15,498 bases of DNA from a virus (Duplodnaviria; Heunggongvirae; Uroviricota; Caudoviricetes): the IMG/VR virus record IMGVR_UViG_2693429582_000026, one strand, 5' to 3'. The notes under the pieces are model-generated. The model ran no database searches, was not told the origin of the DNA, and was given only the letters and a program-made list of their open reading frames with translations. Within the stretch, counting starts at the first letter, position 1, and the number at the start of each line of letters is the position of its first letter. Positions 10,288 through 11,286 of the stretch are shown in pieces. Both the position numbers and the translations under genes were made by a program.

Positions 10288-11286
10288 TTGGAAATCAGCA
10301 CGGCGGTTATTCATTCCGAAGAAGATGCTTTGCGTTTTGTTGAGATGTACATCGCTGGGCAAGATCTTCCTGATGGAATATCATTTGAAGGGTGGCCTAA
10401 CTTAACCTTCCGTCTTACTGGTGACAAATTTCATGGCAGTTTGACTCCTTCTGTCATGAAGGGTTTTGTTGAAATGCAGGCCCAAATAAACCGAGCTTAT
10501 GCATTGTTAAAGTACGGAGTTCCTGACCCAAGAAAGCTTTCAAAAGAAGAGAAGGAAGCTATCGAAATTCAGGTGAATGTTGAGAATGGCTCGTCCTTGA
10601 TAGAAGTTAATATGGATGGGTTCATGGGTGAGGTTATACAAACTGCGGTGAGTAAAGTGGGCCCTCAAGAGATCGTTATTACAGTTTTAGGGGTCGCTCT
10701 TATATGGGGCGGCGTCGTCCTATTCAAAAAATATCTAGAAGACCGCAAAGAGATTCGCATGGCAGAAGTAAAAAGCGAGTCTGAGCGTGAACACCTTGCG
10801 ACCATGCGCTTCATGTCTGAGCAGGAAACAAAACGAAGTGAATTATTGACTCAGATTATTAGCGAAAAACCCAAGCTAGACAACATGGAAAGACTTGCTC
10901 ATGACGCAAAAACCGACATAGTTAAATCATTTGTCAAGGCTGATACAGCTCAGATTGATGGCGTTGTATTGGATGCAGATCTATCCAAAACCCTCACTAC
11001 AAATGCAAGGCGGAAATCAATGGAGATCCGCCTTGATGGAAATTATCGCATTGAAAAGGTTGACTCCACTGATCCAGAGAGCTTCAAAGTGCAAGTGAGA
11101 AATGTTGACTCCGATCTAAGAATATCGTGCATAGTACAAGATGTTTTTCTCGACGCATCCGAGCATAAAAAAGCTCTTCAGCAAGCTGAGTGGGATAGAA
11201 AACCAGTTCATTTGTCAATCAACGCAAAAGAACTAGATGGTGAAATAAAGTCCGCGATAATACTTTATGTCAAAGAGATAACATAA
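10288..11286 (+). CDS. Uncharacterised 332-aa protein with one central transmembrane helix, in the rexA/rexB slot of the immunity operon; candidate exclusion or abortive-infection factor
   Basis: Track ORF beginning at TTG 10288 (AGAGG 7 nt upstream); the first ATG is at 10345. Hydrophobic segment EIVITVLGVALIWGGVVLF sits mid-protein, followed by a charged, helix-like C-terminal half. Lies directly downstream of cI and is followed by the terminator at 11294-11320. No similarity to RexA/RexB that I can recognise. Confidence 0.6.
   Translation: MEISTAVIHSEEDALRFVEMYIAGQDLPDGISFEGWPNLTFRLTGDKFHGSLTPSVMKGFVEMQAQINRAYALLKYGVPDPRKLSKEEKEAIEIQVNVENGSSLIEVNMDGFMGEVIQTAVSKVGPQEIVITVLGVALIWGGVVLFKKYLEDRKEIRMAEVKSESEREHLATMRFMSEQETKRSELLTQIISEKPKLDNMERLAHDAKTDIVKSFVKADTAQIDGVVLDADLSKTLTTNARRKSMEIRLDGNYRIEKVDSTDPESFKVQVRNVDSDLRISCIVQDVFLDASEHKKALQQAEWDRKPVHLSINAKELDGEIKSAIILYVKEIT

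Follow-up and report, generated by a model that had tools for sequence, protein, structure and literature searches.

A conserved single-gene family in place of rexAB in a lambda-type immunity region: a candidate membrane-associated anti-phage cassette

Historically, phage exclusion has its home in the interval between cI and N of phage lambda: this interval carries rexAB, and the mechanism of Rex is still unclear after 60 years. In the literature the slot appears as a hotspot for morons whose transcription starts at the cI promoter; bstA, which is located there, is likewise transcribed from this promoter (PMC7067206, PMC8585504). Here we describe a case in which this slot, within lambda's own immunity, is filled by a different single gene, a member of a conserved, unannotated family. 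It lies in a sequence of 15,498 nucleotides from a virus of the Caudoviricetes (IMG/VR record IMGVR_UViG_2693429582_000026), to which we refer in its full length as the window. The genomic context of the gene suggests a role in defence, and we regard it as a credible, computationally pre-flagged candidate for a defence or exclusion gene.

The rexAB position of the immunity region

Comparison of the window with lambda by blastn yielded two blocks that border the gene on either side. The first (window 9189-10218, lambda 38255-37226, 96.1% identity) contains cro (66 aa, 9203-9403, minus strand; in the ORF list and annotated by RefSeq as 'Cro/CI family transcriptional regulator') and, divergent from it, cI (9504-10217, plus strand), whose 237-aa product is a repressor of the lambda immunity type according to the ORF list, RefSeq and its place in this 96% block. 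The block ends 1 nt beyond the cI stop codon. Between the two genes lies the OR operator region, with TATCACCGC-type operators visible in its sequence and with PR (TTGACT-17-GATAAT, 9428-9456, minus strand), located by promoter scan and by homology to lambda OR. The consensus promoter scan did not detect PRM; by analogy with lambda, this promoter would lie in the same region and read rightwards into cI. The second block (window 11294-11573, lambda 35824-35550, 89.6%) begins 1 nt past the rexB stop codon. The two breakpoints thus place window positions 10219-11293 exactly where lambda carries rexA and rexB: a cassette of 1,075 bp on the plus strand replaces 1,401 bp of lambda (37225-35825), comprising both genes and their spacers. 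No Rfam families or notable repeats were found within 10219-11293.

The gene itself (332 codons, 10288-11286, plus strand; WP_000406300.1) follows cI on the same strand after a gap of 70 nt, in which the promoter and terminator scans found no consensus promoter or terminator. It starts with TTG, and the sequence shows a Shine-Dalgarno motif, AGAGG (10276-10280, plus strand), 7 nt 5' of this codon. RefSeq annotates the same start and end for a 'hypothetical protein' in an identical prophage of E. coli O103 ML775, and homologues start at the same alignment column. Seven nucleotides 3' of the gene end, at the first base of the second lambda block, the terminator scan placed an intrinsic terminator homologous to lambda tIMM (11294-11321, plus strand), with a 6-bp all-GC stem-loop (CCCGGC-loop-GCCGGG) followed by the T-run TTTTCTTT; the scan itself gave 11294-11311 for stem-loop and T-run. 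The first-pass annotation had proposed an ORF directly after cI that ends at a tIMM-like terminator and occupies the rexA/rexB slot; ORF list, RefSeq and terminator scan agree with the first part of this proposal, and the blastn breakpoints make the second exact.

Beyond the terminator follow the OL operators and PL (TTGACA-17-GATACT at 11506-11534), assigned together to 11470-11540 on the plus strand from sequence, promoter scan and lambda homology; PR on the minus strand and PL on the plus strand flank the unit formed by cI and the gene. Lambda homology stops at 11573, and the first gene of the PL operon on the far side of the slot (11681-12130, plus strand; ORF list, RefSeq) encodes an N antiterminator of 149 aa that is of a non-lambda type. 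In a lysogen, as its position suggests, the gene would be transcribed together with cI from PRM, with termination at tIMM; expressed in this way, the protein would be present before superinfection and switched off on prophage induction. In a prophage whose other parts are decaying, the gene remains intact and identical.

Family and genomic contexts

The 332-aa protein belongs to phrog_6191, a PHROG family of unknown function (HMM E = 1.1e-137, residues 4-331 against profile positions 6-334 of 338). With 122 full-length homologues, at least 1,550 representative clusters at 50% identity and a dN/dS of 0.02 between the gene and a 98.5%-identical copy, it is no chance ORF. Family members are always about 330 aa long and free-standing, and purifying selection on them is strong; longer relatives were checked for domain fusions, and none were found. 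Pfam, NCBIfam and PADLOC models gave no match to the protein. The search of PADLOC-DB v2 covered 5,027 defence-protein HMMs at E-values up to 10, candidate systems included and presumably also the PD systems, and matched 0 families. A Pfam scan at E-values up to 10 returned solely a sub-threshold aRib match (E = 0.0027), which we consider noise, and no KilA-N, a domain matched by none of 54 family members. Matches to RNase_HII, LapA, Rz and PilO, scattered over a few members, are noise as well, and PDB sequence searches with the single sequence and with a profile returned nothing usable. Aligned by hhalign with a profile of 54 family sequences, RexA gave a probability of 0.08% over 14 columns and RexB one of 0.19%, and on these probabilities homology to either was rejected; RexB is moreover a multi-pass protein, whereas the protein studied here has one hydrophobic segment. 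The initial impression that it resembles neither RexA, RexB nor any named family is upheld by these values (at most 0.2%) and by the empty Pfam, NCBIfam and PADLOC searches. Judged by such sequence comparisons, the family is large, unnamed and without annotation.

Its description as previously undescribed needs qualification. There is indeed no named family, but the proteins had already been grouped as phrog_6191, and WP_000357056.1, a paralogue of 63% identity carried by 86 of 5,426 complete genomes, is listed by DefensePredictor as a 'Putative novel defense gene' (mean log-odds 6.55, cut-off 4; in the available part of Table S10, Science 2026, PMC13092281). WP_000406300.1 itself was not found among the Table S10 matches listed, and WP_000357056.1 is absent from the DefensePredictor tables of cloned or validated systems (PMC13092281). 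A literature search on either accession, phrog_6191 or the slot found no characterisation; an earlier description may exist.

Surveying the cI-tIMM/OL slot in E. coli, we found rexAB, NYN with or without PIN, DUF1828, KilA-N (BstA-like), DUF6932, BRO, HicA/DUF1902 and hypotheticals; the slot is a cassette hotspot, in which the first-pass annotation placed different exclusion genes of other lambdoid phages. The identical 332-aa protein is encoded behind three S24-type repressors, namely lambda cI, a 70%-identical chimera and an unrelated S24 repressor, and the 98.5%-identical copy behind a 155-aa HTH CI, which brings the repressor types to four. Relatives of 28-69% identity are adjacent to or near repressor genes in Moraxella phage Mcat17, a Treponema MAG and a Syntrophotalea circular element; the phyla with repressor-linked relatives are Pseudomonadota, Spirochaetota and Thermodesulfobacteriota.

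Among the 90 loci of a related-loci search, which was seeded with 21 closer family sequences, at least four slot types can be distinguished, and the rex slot is a minority location. In 52 of the 90, the gene lies antisense between Q and the lysis genes, and only weak 9/12 promoter matches were found for these copies. Other relatives lie in the tail module, adjoining the tape-measure gene (locus L091); others are found in a Mu-like prophage or beside genes for a Type ISP restriction enzyme, GmrSD_C and an AHH nuclease, and in Caballeronia the gene stands alone among housekeeping genes. Of 50,697 phage records, 2 contain a homologue. The contexts share no conserved partner gene; an upstream 331-aa ORF in an Oceanospirillaceae island, considered as a paralogue or partner, proved unrelated. 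The cassette moves independently of its neighbours, between moron slots in three phyla.

Predicted structure and membrane association

Residues 1-121 (10288-10650, plus strand) are predicted, from AF2 secondary structure, conservation and charge, to form an acidic alpha/beta domain with a net charge of -9. This is the most conserved part of the protein, with conserved residues E11, W36-P37, T53-P54, Q64, E88 and G101-S102-S103. It precedes a hydrophobic helix (residues 126-146, PQEIVITVLGVALIWGGVVLF; 10663-10725, plus strand), a predicted membrane segment by Kyte-Doolittle hydropathy, insertion energy and AF2, in which the small residues G135, A137, G141 and G142 are conserved; AF2 models helices at 126-141 and 143-160 with pLDDT values of 93-94, in a whole-protein model with a pTM of 0.79. 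By AF2 and conservation, residues 147-243 (10726-11016, plus strand), the least conserved part, comprise the basic juxtamembrane stretch KKYLEDRKEIR and charged helices (147-217), followed by a beta-hairpin and a helix (218-243). At first reading, the entire C-terminal part had been taken for a charged, helix-forming domain. This description fits residues 147-217, but fails for the remainder of the last 185 residues, where residues ~244-332 (11017-11283, plus strand; net acidic) are modelled as a beta-rich OB-fold: three strands, a helix (290-303) and two strands form a five-stranded closed beta-barrel with the helix between strands 3 and 4. Conserved positions in the C-terminal part are R241, G251, Y253, E301-W302-x-R304 and L309-x-I311-N312-A313; R153 and E180/R183 in the helical region are also among the invariant positions.

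The closest resemblance of the predicted OB-fold is to extracytoplasmic ones, those of AB5-toxin B subunits, SilF/CusF and the protein-glutaminase pro-domain. Since their identity to the C-terminal domain is 4-18%, the likeness is one of fold level only; these proteins are secreted or periplasmic and consist of a single domain, unlike the protein described here. Pentamers are typical of AB5 B subunits. The C-terminal domain may or may not be of the nucleic-acid-binding kind (SSB/RPA/PriB type), for which a basic or aromatic binding surface and nearest structural neighbours among ssDNA binders would be expected. Foldseek against the PDB returned only weak OB-fold matches, with E-values above 0.04. 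Three 'full-length' Foldseek matches in BFVD (E ~1e-5) had TM-scores of only 0.22-0.29, and homology was rejected. The same applies to a DUF6575 lead (BFVD, E = 2e-5), which had a TM-score of 0.22 and no Pfam match; a validated PD system contains a domain of this name (PMC9519451). Leptospira phage LE1 gp37 (381 aa), a sister match in BFVD that was equated with entry Q6NE06 by this length only, was dismissed at an hhalign probability of 0.1% and shows no obvious hydrophobic stretch on reading. Mean-field DCA of 289 sequences (Neff ~200), aimed at contacts of the N-terminal domain with the C-terminal domain or the helix, was dominated by gap and phylogeny artefacts, missed known beta-pairings and was discarded.

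By Kyte-Doolittle hydropathy, the protein has a single hydrophobic segment long enough to span a bilayer (EIVITVLGVALIWGGVVLF, 19-residue mean 2.33), and none of the 289 members examined lacks the helix (family mean 1.8, minimum 1.15). Its summed insertion energy, a crude figure, is about -2.2 in the window, 0 or higher in 66% of relatives and +1.5 or higher in ~31%. By the K+R flank bias, 85% of members would have a cytoplasmic C-terminal side; no member has a signal peptide, and neither a lipobox nor outer-membrane beta-barrel features were found in the family. From its sequence, we predict a single-pass membrane protein. Of the single transmembrane helix assigned by the first-pass annotation, the hydrophobic segment is real, but the helix is marginal for insertion in about two thirds of relatives on the crude energy sum, and the topology signals conflict, as the K+R bias points to a cytoplasmic C-terminus, yet the acidic OB-fold resembles extracytoplasmic ones.

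Helix 126-146 could instead lie buried at the centre of a soluble, compactly folded protein of three domains, any function of which would be cytoplasmic. The pTM and the pLDDT across the helix could reflect such packing, and a conservation of 1.89 bits, compared with 1.9-2.0 in the globular domains, together with invariant small residues that suit helix packing, would be in line with it, as would the ~31% of relatives with the highest insertion energies and the clash of either transmembrane orientation with one line of evidence. However, the hydropathy of the segment, in the window as in the family, is far above that of usual soluble proteins, and in AF2 models, transmembrane helices are routinely found packed against soluble domains. 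We consider a buried helix unlikely.

Possible functions and comparison with known systems

The reading that we favour takes the gene for a self-contained accessory cassette of prophages, a moron, that encodes a membrane-associated single-protein anti-phage factor; in our judgement, this is about evenly poised between right and wrong. We lean, if slightly, towards the view that the protein is an anti-phage factor of some kind. The exact substitution of rexAB between cI and tIMM, with no promoter or terminator of its own in the gap, leans towards defence. By analogy, so does the slot's record as a host of known abortive-infection and toxin systems (rexAB, KilA-N/BstA-like, HicA, NYN/PIN), as do the other family locations, which are also classic moron slots, the repressor linkage in three phyla, the Type ISP restriction-modification, GmrSD and AHH neighbours, and the DefensePredictor score. 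Further points in its favour are the lack of a conserved partner gene, the intact gene in an otherwise decaying prophage, the dN/dS of 0.02 and the retention of the hydrophobic helix. DefensePredictor uses neighbouring genes and is for this reason not fully independent of the context argument, and over half of its predictions failed, the overall experimental validation rate being 45% (PMC13092281). Defence is also counted against by the 0 PADLOC matches, by the absence of a recognised catalytic or pore-forming domain and by a very strong purifying selection and invariant architecture, unlike many arms-race sensors. The conflicting topology signals, the pTM that could reflect a packed helix and the marginal insertion in about two thirds of relatives weigh against it as well.

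As an anti-phage moron, the protein would be anchored in the inner membrane via helix 126-146, with the acidic N-terminal domain and the C-terminal OB-fold, judged by their folds, serving as ligand-binding or oligomerisation modules. Infection by another phage would then lead to an action at the membrane, for which we prefer, speculatively, a triggered loss of membrane integrity with a Rex-like abortive outcome, brought about by a single polypeptide where Rex uses two. Because no catalytic domain is present, a mechanism based on a nuclease or on nucleotides is less likely. We hold the abortive or membrane-permeabilising version specifically to be less likely than not. Distinctly improbable is a new class of abortive-infection switch, linked to repressors, made of one chain and functionally analogous to RexAB with its two proteins. 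In such a switch, the conserved, partly marginal helix might be held between an acidic sensor domain and the AB5-toxin-like OB-fold, and on infection it might insert, or rearrange by oligomerisation via the OB-fold, to give a membrane-permeabilising assembly.

A minor possibility is superinfection exclusion by an inner-membrane protein that blocks genome entry, in which a periplasmic or juxtamembrane domain would act against the ejection machinery or a host channel and the cell would survive. The predicted membrane association and the presumed expression in the lysogen would fit this, as would the resemblance of the acidic OB-fold to extracytoplasmic ligand-binding OB-folds and the lack of an enzymatic domain. 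Some relatives, furthermore, lie in the tail module by the tape-measure gene, beside which HK97 carries its exclusion moron gp15. The known entry blockers, however, are of small size, evolve fast and have a narrow range, in contrast to a family of ~330 aa with an invariant architecture, a dN/dS of 0.02 and at least 1,550 clusters in three phyla. That the family turns up in prophages of both lambdoid and Mu-like type, in a phage of Moraxella and also, away from prophages, by a restriction enzyme points to a conserved target rather than to the ejection proteins of one phage.

Rather improbable, too, is a lysogenic-conversion or host-fitness factor, an envelope or membrane protein that alters stress tolerance, the surface or host interaction and whose gene would reside in moron slots because these are expressed in lysogens. 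Moron slots, especially that between Q and the lysis genes, carry virulence and fitness cargo such as Stx and Bor; the factor would be comparable to lambda lom and bor, both named in PMC7067206, and the non-defence content of moron slots (lom, bor, Stx) also counts against the favoured reading. The strong purifying selection suggests that the protein has a conserved partner in the cell, the Caballeronia copy stands alone among housekeeping genes, and no defence model matches. On the other hand, repressor linkage is tight and recurs in three phyla, the swap with an abortive-infection system is exact, and the Type ISP, GmrSD and AHH neighbours and the DefensePredictor score argue for defence; nor does the family have the signal peptide, lipobox or outer-membrane beta-barrel features of an envelope factor.

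Very improbable indeed is a membrane-tethered regulator of the phage's own lysis or induction, with an SAR-like releasable helix that tunes holin/endolysin timing or stabilises lysogeny: the majority location, which adjoins the lysis cassette and Q and in which the gene converges with late transcription, the other recurrent location in the lysogeny operon, and a helix that, by the general criteria for signal-anchor-release helices, consists of at least 50% Gly/Ala/Ser/Thr in ~20% of members and is only marginally hydrophobic in many would suit it, but the gene is missing in almost every lambdoid phage sequenced, swaps between unrelated backbones and occurs away from lysis genes, and hence is not part of the core lysis circuit, and the helix of the window is strongly hydrophobic with 28% of these four residues.

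If the favoured anti-phage role holds, the family would be a widespread new one in defence, with a combination of folds not seen in known systems, and it would offer a natural isogenic comparison with rexAB, because cI, operators and terminator are the same. An abortive switch would, with at least 1,550 clusters in at least three phyla, be among the more widespread unnamed prophage-borne defences and could give a tractable model for Rex-type exclusion. If the role lies elsewhere, the gene would show that guilt-by-location can mislead in prophage hotspots, and would run counter to one machine-learning prediction.

Among known systems, lambda RexAB has the same address to the base, after cI and before tIMM and OL/PL; it shares the presumed co-transcription from PRM in the lysogen and includes a membrane component. 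RexAB, however, consists of a 279-aa soluble sensor and a 144-aa multi-pass protein, in contrast to one 332-aa protein with one hydrophobic helix. P22 SieA, T4 Imm and HK97 gp15 are likewise moron-encoded inner-membrane proteins of a resident phage, and some family members adjoin the tape-measure gene, as gp15 does. As far as we know, all three differ in being much smaller, narrow in range and devoid of an OB-fold. BstA of Salmonella prophage BTP1 is, like the gene described here, a single gene directly 3' of the prophage repressor; it is expressed in the lysogen from the cI promoter, as is presumed for our gene, and its family is spread over diverse Gram-negative prophages (PMC8585504). BstA, however, acts at the sites of phage replication and binds DNA through a KilA-N domain, whereas our protein has neither KilA-N nor any other Pfam domain and carries a hydrophobic helix. 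WP_000357056.1, the E. coli paralogue from the Q-lysis slot, belongs to the same family at ~63% identity, and its DefensePredictor entry is a machine-learning prediction only. PD-lambda-1 (DUF4041; PMC9519451) is a single-protein, membrane-anchored defence with a central coiled-coil region; it is a nuclease, in contrast to the protein of the window, which has no nuclease domain. As a lone membrane-tethered defence protein of E. coli mobile elements, PD-lambda-1 is the nearest architectural precedent.

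Replacement of rexA-rexB in a mosaic prophage

The immunity and early region of the lambdoid prophage covered by the window, which shares 100% identity with a prophage of E. coli O103 strain ML775, carries cro (9203-9403, -) and cI (9504-10217, +) in a lambda-like setting. Direct blastn comparison aligned 9189-10218 with lambda 38255-37226 at 96.1% identity, in a block ending one base past the cI stop codon, and 11294-11573 with lambda 35824-35550 at 89.6%, in a block starting one base past the rexB stop codon. Given these two matches, cI, the operators and the tIMM terminator (a GC-rich stem-loop and T-run, 11294-11311) are by sequence lambda's own. 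The 1,075 bp between the blocks (10219-11293) occupy the exact place of the 1,401 bp that hold rexA-rexB in lambda. Here lies the ORF under study (10288-11286, +), encoding the 332-aa RefSeq 'hypothetical protein' WP_000406300.1 from a TTG start, which is preceded at 7 nt by the Shine-Dalgarno sequence AGAGG and falls in the start column of its homologues in the alignment. The 70-nt gap between cI and this ORF contains no consensus promoter or terminator; the simplest reading is thus that PRM would drive both genes in one transcript. Past PL (11506-11534, within OL/PL), homology to lambda stops at 11573, and the 149-aa N protein (gene at 11681-12130) is of a non-lambda type, which marks the phage, as judged from sequence, as a mosaic of lambda immunity with another N/nut specificity.

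The remainder of the prophage shows several further features. Rfam models place a C4 antisense RNA at 4973-5056, its a1/b1 targets at 5119-5171 and isrK at 5082-5158 (together 4973-5171, -), directly 5' of two antirepressor genes (4186-4920 and 3389-4117, both -) that encode a P22AR C-terminal domain protein and a KilAC antirepressor. Together these form a secondary immunity module of the P1/P7 C4-ant type inside a prophage of lambda immunity. Past Q (2166-2600, -) come three tRNA genes, two for Arg and one for Ile (1476-1724, -), STnc100 (510-703, -) and the anti-GcvB sRNA AgvB (448-509, +), an arrangement reminiscent of Stx-type phages and their Q-tRNA region. The PL operon includes a gene (~13247-13558, +) annotated as a SieB-type 'superinfection exclusion protein', which gives the prophage a second exclusion-type gene besides our candidate. 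RefSeq annotates the gene for replication protein O of the identical prophage as frameshifted (~7864-8735, -) and, in the PL operon past 14100, shows a truncated Rad52-like gene and a theta-like gene interrupted by a stop codon. In this decaying prophage the ORF in the rex slot is intact and identical across genomes.

A large family at recurrent prophage positions

With 9 carriers among 5,426 E. coli genomes the gene is rare, and at the nucleotide level it occurs in none of 50,697 GenBank phage records. Protein searches nevertheless returned 122 full-length relatives of 330-350 aa, every one annotated 'hypothetical', in Enterobacterales, Pseudomonas, Pasteurellaceae, Oceanospirillaceae and Caballeronia, and among 1.84 billion representative proteins a profile search found at least 1,550 clusters at E ≤1e-3 (598 at E ≤1e-30), the best 150 of which are mostly ~320-350 aa long and match nearly the whole profile, a few being shorter or partial. 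The protein belongs to phrog_6191, of 'unknown function' (E = 1e-137). Neither the single sequence nor the profile nor any of 54 members matched an entry of Pfam, NCBIfam, PADLOC or the PDB sequences, and the longer family members contain no extra domains. The first-pass annotation had recognised no similarity to RexA, RexB or any named family, and both Rex proteins are indeed unrelated to ours. Comparison with a 98.5%-identical copy yielded dS 0.34 and dN 0.006, and the resulting dN/dS of 0.02 marks a functional gene under strong constraint.

We collected loci from species-representative genomes (7), from IMG/VR (80) and by exact-protein look-up (6), called ORFs, clustered the neighbours and analysed 90 loci. 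The family gene was single at every locus, and no partner gene was conserved across contexts among the 90. In 52 of them it lies between the Q antiterminator and the lysis genes, on the opposite strand and tail-to-tail with Q across a gap of 12-19 nt, in agreement with RefSeq annotation; an E. coli paralogue in this position, WP_000357056.1 (~63% identity), is present in 86 of the 5,426 genomes. Sixteen copies are found on the same strand directly 3' of a CI-type repressor, and eight occupy a tail-module slot adjoining the tape-measure gene (Pfam TMP_2) or a prophage end. Among the other 14 loci are a Mu-like prophage, cargo regions that carry UmuC, Fic or endonuclease I, a Caballeronia chromosome where the copy stands alone, and an island in which the neighbours are GmrSD_C, an AHH nuclease and a Type ISP restriction enzyme of 1,646 aa. 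At three related loci of this Oceanospirillaceae island (L005-L007, 5591-6586), the gene directly 5' of the family member, adjoining the Type ISP enzyme, encodes a protein of 331-340 aa for which no Pfam hit is recorded and which is unrelated in sequence to ours; this could be a further uncharacterised gene of a defence island.

Three different S24-type repressors precede the identical protein, namely lambda cI, a 70%-identical chimera and one unrelated S24 repressor; with the 155-aa HTH CI that precedes the 98.5%-identical copy, the cassette stands behind four repressor types in all. Distant members repeat this link: the gene of Moraxella phage Mcat17 (33% identity) begins 31 nt past an S24 repressor, a 13.7-kb circular element of Syntrophotalea carries an HTH repressor, two small ORFs, the family member and a recombinase, and a Treponema MAG has an S24 repressor, a small membrane ORF and then a family member split in two. 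In the latter (L022, 5884-6851) the two ORFs, of 203 and 123 aa, overlap, owing either to a frameshift/pseudogene or to an assembly error, and the preceding small ORF encodes 204 aa with multiple hydrophobic stretches. Both majority positions would entail expression in the lysogen and silencing upon induction.

Domain anatomy and probable membrane association

An AlphaFold2 model built with a 54-sequence alignment (mean pLDDT 86.7, pTM 0.79) comprises an acidic (-9) alpha/beta domain at residues 1-121, the most conserved part of the protein by alignment, followed by a hydrophobic helix at residues 126-146 (pLDDT 93-94) that runs on into a basic juxtamembrane stretch, KKYLEDRKEIR. The C-terminal domain had initially been described as charged and helical. 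This applies to residues 161-217, which form the least conserved part and precede a short hairpin, but residues ~244-332 are modelled as an OB-fold, a barrel of five strands in which a 14-residue helix separates strands 3 and 4.

The hydrophobic helix is kept in 289 of 289 members. In our protein it is strongly hydrophobic (Kyte-Doolittle 2.33), with a crude summed insertion energy of -2.2 on approximate scale values; about two thirds of the members score ≥0 on this crude scale, and in ~20% of the 289 the helix is at least half Gly/Ala/Ser/Thr. The flanks carry 1.9 K+R on the N-side and 4.4 on the C-side, the latter being higher in 85% of sequences, a bias that predicts a cytoplasmic C-terminus and would thus require export of the 125-residue N-domain. 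This is at odds with the absence of a signal peptide from every family member and with the OB-fold, which is most like extracytoplasmic ones. The high pTM hints at a fixed inter-domain geometry in the model. Coevolution analysis aimed at topology gave no usable signal. Of the single-pass membrane protein proposed at first, the one strongly hydrophobic helix stands, while the topology signals contradict one another; the protein is likely membrane-associated, and a single pass is plausible. Burial of the helix in a soluble protein, a structural alternative independent of the question of function, seems unlikely.

Possible function and comparison with known systems

The best-supported reading is that of a mobile, lysogen-expressed, membrane-associated anti-phage factor acting as a single protein, and a defence role of some kind is, by a modest measure, the probable one. 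As to its mode, we tentatively prefer an abortive mechanism that would act at the membrane level; the sequence offers no clue to infection sensing. A block of phage entry is a less likely mode, considering that the family is broad, invariant in architecture, under strong purifying selection and also found beside restriction genes outside prophages. Outside defence, the main alternative, a conversion gene that benefits host fitness, appears improbable.

Among the papers we could read, none characterises the family. Table S10 of DefensePredictor (Science 2026, PMC13092281), a set of predictions on 3,000 E. coli strains, lists the paralogue WP_000357056.1 as predicted_defensive TRUE and 'Putative novel defense gene', with a mean log-odds of 6.55 (range 4.5-9.7) against a strict cut-off of 4 and without an HHblits or Foldseek hit; 45% of the cloned predictions conferred phage protection (PMC13092281). 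The paralogue does not figure in the complete tables of systems that were selected, assayed or validated, and the family motifs occur in no validated DefensePredictor protein. The family is thus a candidate for an unnamed exclusion or defence cassette of prophage hotspots, already flagged by one machine-learning screen. Unknown cassettes are to be expected in this hotspot, and there are thousands of similar candidates; ours lacks a mechanistic handle, and is set apart by an unusually clean rex-slot replacement and a large, unannotated family.

Apart from the one anatomical correction, the first-pass observation is confirmed, and its interpretation as a candidate exclusion or abortive-infection factor is supported in part. 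Its description of the slot, with an unrecognised gene in the place of rexA-rexB, is correct and agrees with the lambda alignments, the literature and our survey of the 5,426 complete E. coli genomes with the 2.4-kb unit as query. Other contents between cI and tIMM were rexA and rexB, NYN with or without PIN, DUF1828 with a hypothetical protein, DUF6932, BRO, HicA/DUF1902, one or two hypotheticals, and a KilA-N protein. Among these, the uncharacterised occupants (DUF1828 or DUF6932 with a hypothetical protein, and hypothetical pairs) are far commoner than our gene. The KilA-N occupant resembles BstA, whose gene is transcribed from the cI promoter within the cI-N interval, a mosaic hotspot of accessory genes (PMC8585504; PMC7067206).
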